From IMG/VR virus record IMGVR_UViG_3300029240_000011: DNA of 58,296 bases; one strand, written 5' to 3'. Position 1 is the first letter of the stretch, and each line of letters starts with the position of its first letter. Position numbers and translations under genes: made by a program. The notes below the pieces were generated by a model. The model was not told the origin of the DNA. It did no database searches and worked only from the letters and a program-made list of their open reading frames with translations. Below are positions 12,906-51,693 of the stretch, piece by piece. Source of the DNA: a virus.

Positions 12906-13131
12906 GTATATACCGCCTTTCTAAAATGTTATTTTCACCTTATATGTTGACCCAGGGCAGGGGAGTAAGGTGGCACCTCCCTTTTCGGCCCGTCGGCCTA
13001 TCCCTGGCGTTCAACCAATGTTGTGAGAGACAGCGATATCCGTTTGCCTCTCAAATGGTAGATTCTAAATCAAAATCTCCGCTATCCATATATTCGGTTG
13101 TCAAGGTACAATTTATTGGAATGGATGGAAA

Positions 13132-17644: not shown

Positions 17645-17977
17645 TTACTCGTTCACGCCGATGTTGTCCCGCAGGATAATCCCGGGCACTGCAAATGTCG
17701 TATCCAATGTTACACCAGAATGCTCCTGAGCTTTTGCCTTGTCTACAACGCCCTGAACCAGCAGCGCTCCGTTCGGATTCTCTGTCGGATCTACATCGTA
17801 CAGGAGCATACCTGCAGCAGTAGCATAAGACGTGGATGCAATCTTTTTCCCAGCAGAAGTCATCGGCGTTCCAGCCTTAACAGTCGATGTTTCATCCACT
17901 TTAATAGGAATTGCCACAAAATCGTCAGCAGCCAAAATTTCTACAGTGCCGCCAACAGAAGTCTTGGAAAACTTCAT
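17645..17977 (-). CDS. head decoration protein (gpD-like)
   Basis: 110 aa lying directly upstream of the capsid gene. Confidence 0.6.
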   Translation of the reverse strand: MKFSKTSVGGTVEILAADDFVAIPIKVDETSTVKAGTPMTSAGKKIASTSYATAAGMLLYDVDPTENPNGALLVQGVVDKAKAQEHSGVTLDTTFAVPGIILRDNIGVNE

Positions 17978-17995
17978 CTGTTTCTCTCCTTTTCA

Positions 17996-18568
17996 TCAAA
18001 AATAGTGTTTCAAACCTTCGTTTGCATTTTTGAGGGCATCGGCCCGCTGCTTGCCCAGCTTCTTGGCAAACTCTACGGCCTCATTCTTGCCGACCTCTCC
18101 ACCACCAGCACCGTCAGGCTTAGGGTCCTGCTTCACCAGATCAGCCCGCAGCTTCTTCTCATATGCGGCGTTGGCCTTCTGCTGGTTGGCAAAGACCCGC
18201 TCCATATCGCCGTCAAACAACGCCTCTGCTGTCTCGCGGGCCAGCTTCTCGTCATAGCCCGGCATGGCGATATAGCGGGCGGTGTGCTCGGCAATGGTGG
18301 ACTTCCGCAGCAGTTCGGTGTACTTGCCCTCCAGCTCCTTGCGGTCTGCATCGGCTTGGGCCTTTGCGGCCTCGTCATCGGTCATTTTGGATTTGAGCTG
18401 CTTTTTCAGTTCAGCGGCCTCTGTCGCATATTTGTCCGCAGTATCTTTCGACACATACAAAGACAAATCCACCTTCTCAGGAATTTCAGCTTTCAGAAGT
18501 GCATCTACCTTCTGTTCAGCAGTCATCCCATCAAAGCCCTCAATCGTGCTGATATCAATGGTGGCCAT
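17996..18568 (-). CDS. capsid scaffolding protein
   Basis: 190 aa, coiled-coil, A/E/K-rich. Position fits. Confidence 0.7.
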   Translation of the reverse strand: MATIDISTIEGFDGMTAEQKVDALLKAEIPEKVDLSLYVSKDTADKYATEAAELKKQLKSKMTDDEAAKAQADADRKELEGKYTELLRKSTIAEHTARYIAMPGYDEKLARETAEALFDGDMERVFANQQKANAAYEKKLRADLVKQDPKPDGAGGGEVGKNEAVEFAKKLGKQRADALKNANEGLKHYF

Positions 18569-22263: not shown

Positions 22264-22337
22264 TGGAGCAGCGCACGGGTCTTGAACCCGTACCATCAGC
22301 TTTGAAAGCTGGTATGCGCCAATTACACCAGCGCTGC
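22264..22337 (-). tRNA. tRNA with anticodon UCA (opal suppressor type), CCA encoded
   Basis: Hand-folded cloverleaf: 7/7 acceptor pairs, 5/5 T stem with loop TTCAAGA, 4-bp D stem with GG in the loop, anticodon loop TT-TCA-AA, 4-nt variable loop, discriminator T. Confidence 0.8.
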
Positions 22338-24957: not shown

Positions 24958-25623
24958 TCAGGCATTATTTTGATCCAGTCCATACTTTTCTAACAACTCC
25001 CTCTTTTTCGAATCATACGCGGACTTTGCACTTTCAATAGACAGAAAACCCGTTTTTACCCAGCGTTCTCCAGAAACCTGAACGGCTACTCTGTATGTCT
25101 TGCCATTCTTTTCCAACATAACGCCACGCACACCGGTTTTGCTTCTTATCATCGCCTTATCTGACTTCACCGCCGCAATATCCGCACGTTTTGTTCCGCC
25201 CGTTTCTACGAACTTGGCCTTAACAGCAAGATCAGAGTATTTCTTCATTTCCTCGCTTTTGTATTGCTGGCAGCCGCATCCTTTTGGCTTATTCCTTATC
25301 GTCTGCGCGGGGAACTCTTTTTCAGATCCGCACATGGAACACTTGCACAGATACAGCGCGTTCCTGTGCTTGTCAATTCCGGTTCGCTTTAATACAGTCA
25401 GCGCACCATAGATTTTTCCGGTAAGATCTGCTGTTTTCTCACGCTTCTTGCATCCACAGTCTTTCTTTGGCGATTTTTTATCGGTTAACCGTTGGCCCTC
25501 CACGACGCACTCATTTCCGCATCTGCGACATATGCACCGCCAAAGCATGGCGCCTTTGGGCGAGCGCCCAGCGGGTTCTATTACTGTCAGTTCCCCAAAC
25601 CTTTGGCCGATGAGGTCTTTCAT
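24958..25623 (-). CDS. homing-endonuclease-like DNA-binding protein (two Zn-ribbon modules + C-terminal AP2 domain)
   Basis: LIGQRFGELTV, WRCICRRCG...DCGC, CKCSMCG...GCGC, then TGVRGVMLEKNGKTYRVAVQVSGERWVKTGFLSIESAKSAYD. Confidence 0.6.
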   Translation of the reverse strand: MKDLIGQRFGELTVIEPAGRSPKGAMLWRCICRRCGNECVVEGQRLTDKKSPKKDCGCKKREKTADLTGKIYGALTVLKRTGIDKHRNALYLCKCSMCGSEKEFPAQTIRNKPKGCGCQQYKSEEMKKYSDLAVKAKFVETGGTKRADIAAVKSDKAMIRSKTGVRGVMLEKNGKTYRVAVQVSGERWVKTGFLSIESAKSAYDSKKRELLEKYGLDQNNA

Positions 25624-25793
25624 CTTACTCACCAAAACCACCCTCTTTTTGTTTTGTGCGGCGATTTTTCAATGCGCCTTTTTTTCACGGGATTTTAGAA
25701 AGCTCTCCTTTCCAGCACATACCACTGGATCTTACTAATCCCAATCTGCTTACAGGCGGCCTCCACTGTGATGGAGCCGTCTTTTTTTATTTT

Positions 25794-26939
25794 TTAGGAT
25801 ATTGTCGTTTTTGGCCTACCAGCGGTAACTTTCGGCGTGGTTAATGCCTCGTATGGTGTCATGCCCATTTTCTTAATGCGGTAAGATACAAAAGAAAAGC
25901 TCAATCCGTATTGCTCGCACCAATCAATGGCCGACTTCGTTTCTCCATTAATCTCCCATTCCAGTTTCCGTTTCCTGCTCCGCTTTTTGGTTGGTCTTGC
26001 GGTAAATGTATATTTCGGATGTTGATTGTTTGCTTGCGCCTTTGCATCAGCCCACCTACAATTATCTGGTGAGTACCCTTTGTCGTTATCAATTCGGTCT
26101 ATTGATAAATTATCGGCATACCCATGCGACAGAGCCCAATCCCTAAACGCAAACACATCCTCTCTCCATTCATCACAAATGTCTATTCCTCGCCCACCGT
26201 ATGTTTTCCACGCATGGTTTTTGTGGTTATAACACCGCTCTTTCATTCCGCTCCAAATTCTGTATATCCTATCTTTTGATAATCCATGTGTACTAATAAG
26301 GGACTTATGATGAATACAATCTGCTTTTCCACAACTCTTTATTGTCCCATTTTCAAAAAGCACCGGATTTACTTCAACTGATCTACCGCAATCACATCTG
26401 CACACAAACATCTTTTTGCGTTTTCCAACAACGGTTAGATGGTATTTTCGAACACCTCTCCATTTTTCTATATCAAACTTTCCTCGGTTTGTTTGGCAAA
26501 TACAAACCATAGGATTTTCTCTCAACAAAAACTTTGGAGCGTGGTAATTCTCTGCACCACAAAAGGTACATCTCGTTTTCCAGCCGAATCCCGTTTTATA
26601 TCCAATTATCTCCCAGCATCCAATTTTCTGCCCAATCCACTTTGGGTTGCTTGGCAAATTTTCTCTTTTAATCCTTGCGGTTTCCTTTTCCGCTGCTATT
26701 CTTTTTCTTGTTTCACACCCACAAATCCCTTGATTCTTCCCTTTCGCATAATCTTTCCCGTTATGCGTGACTTTCTTCCTTCCGCACTTCTGACAGGTTA
26801 GCTCCCACATCTGTTTATGTGTTTCCCAATCATACCAAACACGGGTAACTTCAAAATCGCCGTACACTTTCCCGATTCTGTCAGAATAAAACTGATCCTG
26901 CATTTCAAGAACCTGTTTCTTGTTTGCCTCGTTAAACAT
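25794..26939 (-). CDS. homing-endonuclease-like protein (three Zn-ribbon modules + IDRIDNDKGYSPDNCRW module + HTH)
   Basis: 381 aa. Paralogous to 19737..20498. ATG overlaps the recombinase stop. Confidence 0.55.
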   Translation of the reverse strand: MFNEANKKQVLEMQDQFYSDRIGKVYGDFEVTRVWYDWETHKQMWELTCQKCGRKKVTHNGKDYAKGKNQGICGCETRKRIAAEKETARIKRENLPSNPKWIGQKIGCWEIIGYKTGFGWKTRCTFCGAENYHAPKFLLRENPMVCICQTNRGKFDIEKWRGVRKYHLTVVGKRKKMFVCRCDCGRSVEVNPVLFENGTIKSCGKADCIHHKSLISTHGLSKDRIYRIWSGMKERCYNHKNHAWKTYGGRGIDICDEWREDVFAFRDWALSHGYADNLSIDRIDNDKGYSPDNCRWADAKAQANNQHPKYTFTARPTKKRSRKRKLEWEINGETKSAIDWCEQYGLSFSFVSYRIKKMGMTPYEALTTPKVTAGRPKTTIS

Positions 26940-27597
26940 CCCCCTTTTTTACCCCCTTTTTGTTTCGGCTCTCCAGCGGAGGCAACCCGTGTTCCGCCCG
27001 ATACTTCGCAACTGCCTTATAGTAGGTGTTTGGACGCAACCCCAACTTTTCCATCGCCCACTTGTTCGTCCTCCCATCAGACAGAACTTCTTTGTAGGCT
27101 GCATCGAAAGCCACCTCATCTATTTCAATCGGCTTTCTTCCTTTATATGCGCCTCTGTCCTTAGCAAGAGCAATCCCTTGGGCCTGCCGCTCATGCGTGT
27201 TGATTCTTTCCTTCTCAGCCACATACGAAAGAACTTTCAATACAATATCAGCAATCAGCGTTCCTGTGAGATCGTTCGTTTTCCTGGTATCCAAAATGGG
27301 CATATCCAGCACAACAATATATGCTCCGATCTCCTTCGTGATATGTTCCCACTGTTTTCCAGTCTCAGTGTAATTTCTTCCGAGCCGGTCAAGGCTGCAC
27401 ACAAAAACCGTATCACCCTTTCGGATTACAGTCATCATCGCGTTCCATTTGTCCCGGTTGTAGTCCCGCCCGCTCTCTTTATCAATGAAGATGTACCGCT
27501 CCGGCACTCCGGCCTCTTTCAGCATTTTAGTCTGCCGCTCCTCATTTTGGTCTTTCGAGGACACCCGCGCATATCCAACACAAATGCTCTCAGCCAT
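26932..27597 (-). CDS. small serine recombinase (resolvase/invertase family)
   Basis: MAESICVGYARVSSKDQNEERQ...VFVCSLDRLGRN catalytic-domain motifs plus a C-terminal HTH. AAGGAGG SD before ATG 27597. Confidence 0.85.
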   Translation of the reverse strand: MAESICVGYARVSSKDQNEERQTKMLKEAGVPERYIFIDKESGRDYNRDKWNAMMTVIRKGDTVFVCSLDRLGRNYTETGKQWEHITKEIGAYIVVLDMPILDTRKTNDLTGTLIADIVLKVLSYVAEKERINTHERQAQGIALAKDRGAYKGRKPIEIDEVAFDAAYKEVLSDGRTNKWAMEKLGLRPNTYYKAVAKYRAEHGLPPLESRNKKGVKKGDV

Positions 27598-27627
27598 CCC
27601 ATCTCGCCTCCTTTTGTTTGCAAATTC

Positions 27628-27657
27628 ATTATAACAAATAATTTTGTTGTTTGTCAA
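27628..27657 (-). promoter_or_regulatory. consensus promoter TTGACA-18-TATAAT for the recombinase operon
   Basis: Read directly. Confidence 0.65.
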
Positions 27658-27874
27658 CATGTTTTTTGCTTTTTTTAATTTTTCTGTGGTAGGGGGGCTC
27701 AGGTGGTGGGTGGCCGCCCTGTCCTATCCCCCTGGGGTGCCCGGCGGCCCGTTATCCTTGTAATACCTTGATTATCTGGGGTATACCCATACCAAACAGC
27801 CCACATATATATAATAATAATTTGGCACAAATCGCAACTACTCAAAAAATAAATAAAAATATTTGTAAATTCTG

Positions 27875-27903
27875 TTGACTACATCAAGCAAATATGTTAT
27901 CAT
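27875..27903 (+). promoter_or_regulatory. promoter TTGACT-17-TATCAT (plus strand)
   Basis: Read directly. Precedes the 43-aa ORF. Confidence 0.55.
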
Positions 27904-27956
27904 ATAATCACAGCAAGGGAAACCGCGCTGAATCTACCGGGCAGGAGGTACACGAA

Positions 27957-28088
27957 ATGGAGACTGATAGCATGACCCAGACCGAGTTAGCATCTTACCT
28001 TGAAACCCTGGCGAAACTGGTAGAGGCCACAGCCAAAGACCCGCAGGATGCGGCCCGCATTATCCGGGAAGCCATTCCAAAGCAGTAA
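27957..28088 (+). CDS. small hypothetical protein (43 aa)
   Basis: GCAGGAGG SD. METDSMTQTELASYLETLAKLVEATAKDPQDAARIIREAIPKQ. Confidence 0.5.
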   Translation: METDSMTQTELASYLETLAKLVEATAKDPQDAARIIREAIPKQ

Positions 28089-28301
28089 AAAAGATAGCCG
28101 CCCTACCCTTAACAAGTAAGCGGCTATCTAACAAAGAACACGGGGCGGCATGGCCTGCCACATGTCGCCCTCAGTGTAACACAACCGGCAGGGAAAGGCA
28201 AGAGCCGCAAGGAGACCGAAGAATGGAGGTGACCCCCGCTTGATTGTCCTGTTTGTCTTGCTCCTCCCGCTTATGGTGATCTGGGAGACGGCGAAAAAAT
28301 C

Positions 28302-28330
28302 TTGACTGCCCTAAGCGGGCGCGATACAAT
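28302..28330 (+). promoter_or_regulatory. promoter TTGACT-17-TACAAT (plus strand)
   Basis: Read directly. Precedes 28376..28675. Confidence 0.55.
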
Positions 28331-28375
28331 CAACACAACGGAGCCCGGCAAAGCCTGGGGAAAGGACGGCATAAT

Positions 28376-28675
28376 ATGACTACTACGTTATATATCACCC
28401 GCACCGGCGATATGATCCAGACGGGCAAGCCCGCAGAGGTAACACTTGAGGAGTACCCGGAAATTAGCCGGACATGGATCCGGCGCGTTACTGTGGAGCT
28501 GCCCGCAGGGTTTGAGGCGGCAGAGGCCGGAGACGGAAGGAAGCGCATTTTTCGCGGCCCTGATTGCTACGAGCTGACCGCTAACGTGGACGACGTGCCC
28601 TGCATCATCGACCACACCCAGAGAGGTGGTCCGTTTATCCCGCTCCGCGTCCTGTCTGAGGGATGGGACATCTAA
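28376..28675 (+). CDS. hypothetical protein (99 aa)
   Basis: Track ORF on the opposite strand to the phage backbone. Followed by a terminator. Confidence 0.55.
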   Translation: MTTTLYITRTGDMIQTGKPAEVTLEEYPEISRTWIRRVTVELPAGFEAAEAGDGRKRIFRGPDCYELTANVDDVPCIIDHTQRGGPFIPLRVLSEGWDI

Positions 28676-28689
28676 CAATATCTTCACTG

Positions 28690-28724
28690 CCCACCCTGGG
28701 CTTTCCCGGGGCGGGTTTTCTTTT
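28690..28724 (+). terminator. rho-independent terminator
   Basis: CCCaCCCTGGG-cttt-CCCGGGGcGGG followed by TTTTCTTTT. Confidence 0.7.
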
Positions 28725-28996
28725 GTCTATGCCCTTGTATTCCCCTCATGCTCCACGCCGCTTGTATGGCCTCCTATGGCCCACAGGCGGCATTATTGCG
28801 CCCATGTCCGGCAAAGCGGAGCCGACCGCAAAAAGCAACGCCGCAAAGGCCATTTACAGACCTTACACGGCGTTTTATCGCTATGCAGTGTCTCTGTATA
28901 TCCCATAGCACCAAACGGCATATATCGGCTCTCAGAGCGCCCCACAGCGCACAAAGCAACCCCGACCCGCTCCGCATGGAGTAGGACGGGGTATTG

Positions 28997-29224
28997 TCAT
29001 TTGTTGCGGGCCAGGTATAGGACGGCGCAGCGGGGGCCGTCGCACTCCCCGCCGATATACTCCACGCGGGGCGGCTCTCCATCGGCCTGACACTTAATCA
29101 CGCCAACTTTCAGCGCTGCGGCCAGATCCGGCTCCGGGTCATATTTGTTATAGTTGCACAAATCGCCAAAGTGTTTTCCCGAGAATTTGCGATACCCGCT
29201 TGTGCAATTTACTGGTGATAGTCG
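28997..29224 (-). other. start-less 75-codon ORF in frame with TerS, directly after its TGA stop
   Basis: Codon-by-codon reading: TGA then RLSPVNCTSGYRKFSGKHFGDLCNYNKYDPEPDLAAALKVGVIKCQADGEPPRVEYIGGECDGPRCAVLYLARNK then TGA. No ATG/GTG/TTG lies near its 5' end in this frame. Confidence 0.4.
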
Positions 29225-29752
29225 TCACTCCTCCACCACCACAGACCCGGCGATCCGCTCTTCAAGCTGTTTCTGGTCTGGAGAGTCGCCGAGGGGCTGA
29301 TTCGGGGTGAGAACCAGGTCTTGAACATCTTTCATGCCATAGAAGTTCTTAGACCTAAAAATATACGTAGTCTCCGGGATTTTGCGTCCAAGCACCAATT
29401 CTGCGTCGATATTTGATAAAATTTGTTTCGCTTTTTTTATCATGTTCGACCTCGCGGAACTGCATCCATTCCCATTTTCCCATTCCCAAACAGTAGACCG
29501 AACAGCGCCCAATGCAAGGCACATCTTCTCAACGGTAGGGATTTCCCCGGTTCTTCCACACTCTGCAAAGAACTCATTCAGTCTGTCTGCACACTCATCA
29601 TCAGACTTAACAATCTGCTTATTAAACCACTTGTAAGAGTTCCTGACGATTTGAGCGATTTCTTCTTTCTTTGCTGTGGTAGTCGCTTCAATGGAGGCTG
29701 ACTTCGACCCTCTTTTCCTGACGGGCTGTGTCATAGTCACATCCTGCTCCAT
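29225..29752 (-). CDS. terS: terminase small subunit
   Basis: ...FFAECGRTGEIPTVEKMCLALGAVRSTVWEWENG...TYIFRSKNFYGMKD, the TerS HTH + oligomerisation pattern. Start at MEQDV (the track ORF is longer). Confidence 0.7.
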   Translation of the reverse strand: MEQDVTMTQPVRKRGSKSASIEATTTAKKEEIAQIVRNSYKWFNKQIVKSDDECADRLNEFFAECGRTGEIPTVEKMCLALGAVRSTVWEWENGNGCSSARSNMIKKAKQILSNIDAELVLGRKIPETTYIFRSKNFYGMKDVQDLVLTPNQPLGDSPDQKQLEERIAGSVVVEE

Positions 29753-29759
29753 AGTCGCA

Positions 29760-51547: not shown

Positions 51548-51693
51548 TTGAACACGTCCTTATGTAAAAAATAAGGAGGATCGTGAGGAGGGTGGCGACG
51601 TGTACCAACCCTAAATCCCCACGTCCTCCATGCCTATATTGTCGCAGAAAAATACCCCGGCTGGGGTTGATCCCAGTCGGGGTTATGTATGAT

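Follow-up and report, generated by a model that had tools for sequence, protein, structure and literature searches.

The start-less, 75-codon open frame that directly follows the stop codon of the probable TerS gene in IMG/VR virus record IMGVR_UViG_3300029240_000011 is very probably a composite of a non-coding spacer and the 5'-truncated remnant of a neighbouring gene, brought into the TerS frame by a 215-nt deletion. The window, which here means the whole stretch of viral DNA analysed (58,296 nt), carries the TerS gene on its minus strand. Five observations carry this reading: the frame has homologues, the breakpoints of the deletion can be located, the frame arithmetic fits, the allele recurs in other assemblies, and substitutions in the spacer follow a non-coding pattern.

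Reading codon by codon from the TerS TGA, the same frame remains open for 75 codons, and the translation is identical to the 75 residues reported in an earlier, sequence-only reading of this DNA. That reading also stated correctly that the frame has no start codon near its 5' end, the first in-frame start being the TTG at 29161, which leaves 54 codons, and that the region is rich in G+C (GC 0.58–0.60, versus about 0.44 in TerS). The 75 codons consist of 27 spacer codons, one junction codon and 47 remnant codons (Table 1). When the 46 likely genes of the window were scanned for in-frame open codons behind their stops, at least 75 were found in 4 and at least 50 in 7; openness by itself does not put the 75-codon frame above chance. 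The earlier remark that the translation looks protein-like is correct; homologues and a coding pattern are seen for the last 47 codons, and the first 27 are non-coding spacer. The earlier caveat that the frame may be open by chance applies to the first 27 codons. The 5' third of the frame is open by chance, and the 3' two-thirds are not a chance frame, as they match 33 further protein clusters.

Table 1. Features of the window around the probable TerS gene and the open frame behind it
Feature	Position	Strand	Details
Probable TerS gene	29225..29752	-	ORF open from GTG 29839; likely start ATG 29752
Stop codon TGA of probable TerS	29227-29225	-	
75-codon open frame after the TerS TGA	29224-29000 (225 bases)	-	Translates to RLSPVNCTSGYRKFSGKHFGDLCNYNKYDPEPDLAAALKVGVIKCQADGEPPRVEYIGGECDGPRCAVLYLARNK
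Intergenic spacer	29144..29224	-	81 nt, first 27 codons (RLSPVNCTSGYRKFSGKHFGDLCNYNK); non-coding in L072
Perfect inverted repeat, 8 bp	Arms 29154-29161 and 29200-29207		TTGCACAA / TTGTGCAA; within the spacer
54-aa ORF (P0001)	28997-29161	-	TTG start 29161
Deletion junction	29141..29143	-	Codon TAT; 218 nt of L072 reduced to 3 nt, net loss 215 nt
Probable 3' remnant of the small cysteine-rich protein gene	29000..29140	-	47 codons, DPEPDL...CDGPRCAVLYLARNK
Site of older 30-nt in-frame deletion	29024..29032	-	Common to L072; one 9-nt repeat copy (CGCTGCGCC) left
Closing TGA of the 75-codon frame	28997..28999	-	Native stop position of the small gene
Conserved GC-rich non-coding stretch	28690..28996	-	About 300 nt, downstream of the small gene
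Terminator-like hairpin	28950..28991 (hairpin 28991-28960)	-	CCCCGTCCTACTCC-ATGC-GGAGCGGGTCGGGG, then TTGCTTTGTG
Terminator for convergent plus-strand gene	28694-28711		Ends the GC-rich stretch
Convergent gene, 99 aa	28376-28675	+	
Convergent gene, 64 aa	27894-28088	+	
Serine invertase gene	27660-26932	-	Own strong promoter
TerL	24337-22715	-	
tRNA, anticodon UCA	22264..22337	-	Opal suppressor type; 6.9 kb downstream

The structure of the frame becomes apparent in an alignment with L072, a Logan contig encoding the homologous protein P0002, which is a close relative of the window and not its actual ancestor. The two sequences share 95.0% identity from 30504 to 29138 and 91.2% identity from 29141 to 28241, and the only large gap, corresponding to positions 1770–1980 of L072, lies between these aligned blocks. 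L072 has the same TerS end, the same TGA and, apart from two substitutions, the same 81 nt after the TGA. There the spacer is followed by an intact gene in another frame, with its SD and ATG: the sequence continues as ...AATGACTTTCTGGAGGCAAGGCGACT-ATG (GGAGG-N10-ATG) into the 111-codon gene of P0002, whose product reads MADDYESPTL...GKLCPLKAAEPPVLTIWNSDPEPDL...CDGPRCAVLYLARNK (111 aa). A full-length gene is accordingly present at the same locus with collinear flanks. The 215 nt missing from the window include the ribosome site, the ATG and codons 1–64 with the KLCPLK motif. The microhomology TGAC is found at both L072 breakpoints, and one junction base departs from a simple TGAC-mediated deletion. 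As 215 equals 3n+2, the 47 codons left over now lie in phase with TerS. We infer that the difference arose by deletion in the window rather than by insertion in L072.

The same junction is present in two independent ENA metagenome assemblies (L073 and L074, 99.4–99.7% identity), and the GGGAAAAC run does not differ between the window, L072, L073 and L074. The identity of junction and run in L073 and L074 shows that the allele is real and circulating, and that neither an assembly error nor a homopolymer error is involved. As a separate observation, an allele found in at least three assemblies is not strongly counter-selected.

The spacer that supplies the first 27 codons also occurs in L006, a more distant sequence than L072, and the 17 mismatches between the two copies fall 9/6/2 on the first, second and third codon positions of the TerS frame. 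This distribution argues that the spacer is not coding in that frame. Both differences from L072 are non-synonymous in the TerS frame. Analysed as RNA, the spacer shows no significant fold (z -0.2). It contains a perfect 8-bp inverted repeat that is kept in L006, L072, L073 and L074 and was detected in no other fetched locus; this candidate element may serve as a protein-binding site. The TTG that could be taken for the start of the 54-aa ORF sits inside one of its arms.

A homology search with the 75-aa peptide, proposed in the sequence-only reading, did reveal homologues. Leaving aside the 54-aa ORF of the window itself, the peptide matched 33 protein clusters (92–127 aa) at E values of 3e-18 to 2e-9, in all cases within its last ~50 residues. 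The family set (P0002–P0093) comprises 34 clusters when grouped at 90% identity, with 60 representatives when grouped at 50% identity. When 1.84 billion cluster representatives were searched with a profile, 60 members were returned; they measure 44–143 aa with one exception, an unrelated 2062-aa protein matching only the N-terminal profile positions 5–49. Full-length members are mostly 53–143 aa, and some matches are shorter fragments. The family is characterised by K-x-CPL-K, a variable middle and C-x4-CAWW(D)-x4-RCAVLS(L/I)ARNK, with four conserved cysteines. IMG/VR relatives carry the homologue as a gene of its own directly behind TerS, and its ATG typically lies 5 nt past the TerS stop. 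Pairwise codon differences within the family are 45% synonymous in this frame versus 11–29% in the other five, and the variable columns distribute 24/22/41 over the codon positions. Judged by its codon substitutions, the parent family is protein-coding in the frame of the remnant. An antisense ORF at 28626–29090 on the plus strand (154 aa), which shares the wobble positions, was rejected by six-frame counts of synonymous and non-synonymous differences.

The 47 remnant codons are 85% identical to residues 65–111 of P0002 and 46–77% identical to other family members. The remnant lacks an SD, a start codon and the conserved KLCPLK and CAWWD motifs; of the four-cysteine pattern it keeps only C-x4-C fused to AVL. 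Its CPL cysteine was lost in the 215-nt deletion and one further cysteine in the 30-nt deletion, which occurred between 9-nt direct repeats and removed the conserved CAWWDxxxxR segment; CAWWD is seen in distant family members too. The missing start and SD suggest that the remnant is not translated, and it is most likely a pseudogene fragment. Neither the 75-aa peptide nor the full-length members could be assigned to a family by Pfam, PHROGs or NCBIfam, and searching PDB sequences with the family profile gave nothing usable. AlphaFold2 with the 33-sequence alignment reached a mean pLDDT of 42.6 and no usable model. A tblastn search of the peptide against GenBank phages yielded only marginal hits (E 0.04 or worse), blastn of the region one weak match and the family search of genome contigs one spurious match. 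The present analysis documents an uncharacterised small cysteine-rich family whose genes usually sit next to TerS, on its downstream side, in these phages.

The small gene is dispensable, being absent, nonsense-mutated or truncated in different lineages. L001, the nearest relative by TerS (98% identity), shares 99.97% DNA identity with the window downstream of 28677; the gene is missing from L001, and unrelated non-coding DNA stands in its place. In L003, L004 and L071, a TGA occupies the conserved Trp codon. The possibility that the L003 group consists of code-4 phages was rejected, as their other genes contain no in-frame TGA.

The gene label TerS is probable, and rests on weak profile matches (PF16677 GP3_package, E 8e-5, scoring 23.2 bits where the cut-off is 29.4; phrog_606 terminase small subunit, E 1e-5) together with the place of the gene in the packaging region; neither NCBIfam nor PDB sequences matched. 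TerL lies 4.9 kb downstream of TerS, and is followed by the tRNA(UCA) and then the portal gene. Two HNH-type endonuclease genes are located between the serine invertase gene and TerL. Given this order of downstream features, TerS and the 75-codon frame close a transcription unit and are 4.9 kb away from TerL. The terminator-like hairpin marks the end of the unit formed by TerS and the small gene. Its predicted stability is -24 kcal/mol in the window; relatives have a perfect 15-bp stem (-30 kcal/mol, z -5.7), and L062 shows one compensatory G-C to A-U change. An Rfam search over 27600–29400, at gathering and E-value thresholds, returned no match. The segment 27700–29200 was also considered as an invertible segment for the adjacent serine invertase and was rejected, as no convincing inverted repeats were found.

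These findings can be combined into a sequence of events. The ancestral layout would have resembled L072, with the TerS TGA, the 81-nt non-coding spacer and a separate 111-codon gene preceded by GGAGG and starting with ATG. A 30-nt deletion would already have cost this gene its CAWWD segment, as in L072. The later 215-nt deletion, with TGAC at both ends, would have taken the last spacer bases, the ribosome site, the start codon and 64 codons, and its 3n+2 length would have moved the remaining 47 codons into the TerS frame. With the spacer free of stops in that frame, a start-less 75-codon frame would have arisen directly behind the TerS stop. The remnant would now belong to the 3' untranslated region of the TerS mRNA, before the conserved terminator hairpin.

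A cis-acting role of the remnant, as DNA or RNA, is compatible with the pseudogene explanation. In such a case, the remnant would have been kept because the 29-nt stretch GAGCCGCCCCGCGTGGAGTATATCGGCGG may pair with the 3' half of the terminator hairpin, a proposal that we regard as unlikely. The 29-nt stretch is almost invariant in divergent relatives, third codon positions included, with single substitutions in L062, L021, L035 and L004. A 20-nt inverted repeat (29077–29058 versus 28983–28964, 85% complementary) overlaps the loop and the 3' arm of the terminator, and the module that begins at the 3' end of TerS and reaches the non-coding element shows DNA conservation beyond that of the TerS protein. 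However, complementarity in the relatives is far weaker (counted by hand, ~10 Watson-Crick and 4 G-U pairs over the 20 positions, interrupted by mismatches), and RNAalifold on the conserved non-coding stretch found little covariation, the term of +0.2 being almost nil. The strong conservation may just be the result of recent horizontal exchange of the module.

Translation of the remnant from the TTG at 29161, giving the 54-aa P0001 as a shortened functional family member, has only a slim chance of being correct. The ORF exists and is called as a gene in two other assemblies, and certain family members measure merely 53–60 aa. Yet the 15 nt upstream of the TTG (ACACTTTGGCGAT) contain no purine-rich ribosome site, in agreement with the sequence-only reading, which had seen no SD there. 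The TTG itself belongs to the conserved inverted repeat of the spacer, which is found also where the gene is intact. Moreover, P0001 lacks both the near-invariant CPL cysteine motif and CAWWD, which even the shortest members possess.

The sequence-only reading had offered readthrough of the UGA by the phage tRNA(UCA) as its first explanation, which would yield a functional, C-terminally extended TerS (TerS-X-75 aa). This proposal is very improbable, even though several features invite it. The phage encodes a tRNA(UCA) whose 7-nt anticodon loop (UU-UCA-AA) is canonical; its CCA end is encoded, and the discriminator position, as read by eye, is a U. TerS and the 75-codon frame are contiguous, and the allele recurs in three assemblies. 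The TerS stop stands in a UGA-C context, which is a weak terminator context, and an incidental readthrough product may be made, even if unselected. Against a functional extension, the in-frame layout results from a recent deletion and is absent from L072, in which readthrough would append 51 residues of spacer and out-of-frame sequence. The TerS C-terminus ...ERIAGSVVVEE is kept in relatives of 34–98% identity; all of them end at ...SVVVEE, with no conserved extension. At this same ...VVEE position the stop is TAG in 36, TAA in 30 and TGA in 9 of the fetched loci, some of which are overlapping fetches of one contig. Identical copies of the tRNA occur in five IMG/VR contigs, and in four of these TerS ends in TAG (L001, the nearest relative, and L022, L034 and L041). 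On this comparison, the tRNA is not linked to the TerS stop. TGA is, furthermore, the commonest stop of the window and not specific to TerS, as it ends 30 of the 62 greedy ORFs (9 of 24 late, 21 of 38 others). None of TerL, the portal gene, the 1483-aa gene and the other large late ORFs contains an in-frame TGA, and among the 60 family representatives there is neither a TerS fusion nor a TerS-sized member. The substitution pattern of the spacer codons (9/6/2 versus L006) is also not of the coding type. Overall, the cognate tRNA is present, but a conserved stop and extension and a coding pattern over the whole length were not found, nor were the in-frame TGAs in late genes or the avoidance of TGA stops that recoding would leave. 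A variant of this proposal, in which the deletion allele is under selection because the UGA-C context and the tRNA(UCA) give, late in infection, an extended TerS isoform that alters packaging, is just as improbable. If it were true, the spread of the allele over at least three assemblies would reflect selection for an extended TerS isoform with a cysteine-rich 47-residue tail.

The second explanation of the sequence-only reading, a stand-alone gene that starts at the GTG overlapping the TerS stop (29228–29226; MTTITSKLHKRVSQILGK...) and is joined to the frame by a 1-nt change in the A4 run GGGAAAACAC, be it an error or a programmed shift, can practically be discarded: the GTG frame is open for 26 codons and its VTTIT start resembles the METTI/MATTI start of the family, but four independent sequences (the window, L072, L073 and L074) agree exactly in the A4 run and around it, and L006 differs by a substitution without change in length. 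In L072 the gene does share the frame of this GTG, which is offset from the TerS frame by one base upstream, but two TAA stops interrupt that frame ahead of the true SD and ATG. The likeness to METTI stems from a CGACTAT heptamer, which all relatives, even those lacking the gene, carry behind the TerS stop, and the family residues expected next (DYD..GKLCPLK..) are missing in every frame because the 215 nt are absent. No homologue has coding sequence across the A4 site, which is intergenic in L072. What stands of the idea of a separate gene is that a small neighbouring gene, not TerS, is involved; the GTG-plus-slip mechanism does not.

The deletion reading also carries a caution for annotation. 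A start-less frame behind a TGA, in a phage encoding a tRNA(UCA), mimics recoding or readthrough, and here a single close relative exposes it as a probable deletion scar.

Several known systems resemble the arrangement in part. The A1 protein of phage Q-beta is produced by UGA readthrough of the coat gene, and its extension is conserved and essential. The window shares with it a UGA stop followed by an open in-frame extension; in contrast to A1, this extension is lineage-specific, made by deletion and partly composed of non-coding spacer. Compared with the TerS-adjacent cysteine-rich family, the last 47 codons of the window are 46–85% identical to the C-terminal part, whereas full members have the ATG, CPL, CAWWD and four cysteines that the window copy lacks. 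A standard-code Agate phage with a TGA suppressor tRNA has been discussed as a possible step before a code change, and depletion of TGA is expected before recoding (Borges et al., 10.1101/2021.08.26.457843). Like those suppressor-tRNA phages, the phage of the window uses the standard code and encodes a tRNA with anticodon UCA; unlike what is expected there, it shows no TGA depletion, and nothing connects its tRNA to TerS. A further parallel is offered by the deletion remnants found at mosaic module junctions of temperate phages. As in those, a close relative retains the full-length homologue, the breakpoints are sharp and show microhomology, the start and ribosome site are lost, and separate events have removed or inactivated the gene in sister lineages (L001; L003 and L004). 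The window differs from them in that its remnant lands in frame behind an upstream stop and thereby mimics readthrough.

Comparison of positions 29240-28677 of the window with positions 6513-7005 of L001, a locus of a related phage lacking the small cysteine-rich gene found next to the probable small terminase subunit gene (TerS) in other relatives, revealed sharp mosaic boundaries. L001 matches the window at 94.8% identity in TerS and at 99.97% from 28677 downstream, but the approximately 560 nt in between are swapped for unrelated sequence in L001. From this comparison of sequences, the small gene behaves as part of one exchangeable cassette, which also takes in the last ~60 nt of TerS and the non-coding element.

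The non-coding element opens with a conserved terminator-like hairpin, and its mean column identity across the alignment of relatives is 74%; the TerS proteins of the phages sharing it are just 34–56% identical to that of the window. An Rfam search of this stretch returned no match, RNAalifold covariation is weak, and the fold z-score is -2.6. The element could be a region to which a protein binds (a pac site, for example); it could also be an RNA, or a module that was exchanged recently.

The heptamer CGACTAT occurs five to eight times immediately 3' of the TerS stop in the related loci L059 (2379-2500), L061 (1574-1690), L072 (1680-1950), L001 (6525-6720), and L007. Copies near the 5' end of the small gene are read in two different frames, yielding ..TTI/TTM.. 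and ..DY.., and the heptamer is also present in the non-coding DNA of relatives without the small gene. Because it occurs in two frames and in non-coding DNA, CGACTAT appears to be a motif at the level of the DNA. After the TerS stop, the window retains a single copy (29218-29224), the others having been lost in the deletion that reduced its small gene to a 3' remnant, and carries an extra copy at the TerS start (29751-29757). In the window, a 20-nt inverted repeat connects a near-invariant stretch of the remnant ORF, GAGCCGCCCCGCGTGGAGTA, to the terminator hairpin, where it covers the loop and the 3' arm. The two halves may pair as an alternative, anti-terminator structure; the complementarity is weaker in the relatives.

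Features of the window and of related loci
Feature	Coordinates	Strand	Remarks
GC-rich non-coding stretch 3' of the small gene	window 28690-28996; L059 2726-3030; L061 1888-2190; others	- (window)	~300 nt
Inverted repeat	window 29058-29077 and 28964-28983		20 nt, 85% complementary
Serine recombinase, invertase type	26932-27700	-	PF00239; phrog_125; between TerS and TerL
Two HNH-type endonuclease genes and two small ORFs	within 24958-26939	-	381 aa and 227 aa; phrog_3377, phrog_374
tRNA, anticodon UCA (opal-suppressor type)	22264-22337	-	74 nt, CCA encoded
Match to RAGATH-31 RNA	51575-51629	-	Rfam, 75 bits, above gathering score
Match to int-alpA RNA	12938-13008	-	Rfam, 47.5 bits, above gathering score

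The TerS–TerL gap is unusually long (4.9 kb) and insertion-rich, with the HNH genes and two small ORFs lying between the invertase and TerL. The invertase gene is preceded by a near-consensus promoter (TTGACA-18-TATAAT), and its true start is probably an internal ATG (MAESICVGYARVS...). A search for flanking inverted repeats that would define an invertible segment found none around the invertase.

The phage encoding tRNA(UCA) uses the standard code: TGA is the stop of about half of its ORFs, and none of its large late genes contains an in-frame TGA. Manual reading of the tRNA sequence places U at the discriminator position, and an identical tRNA is encoded on five IMG/VR contigs, which come from relatives that are otherwise divergent. 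At the related loci L003, L004, and L071, from two different IMG/VR contigs, TGA replaces the first Trp codon of the conserved CAWWD motif of the small gene (CA*WD). In L003, TerS, an RtcB-like gene, and other genes are free of in-frame TGA. Either the TGA in CA*WD is a nonsense mutation, or this one codon depends on a suppressor. Separately, two consecutive TGA codons (within 17978-17995, minus strand) close a 190-aa late ORF (17996-18568), behind which the next ORF, of 110 aa (17645-17977), lies in the same frame. This double TGA may serve as a tandem stop; given the opal-suppressor tRNA of the phage, such an arrangement would be notable.
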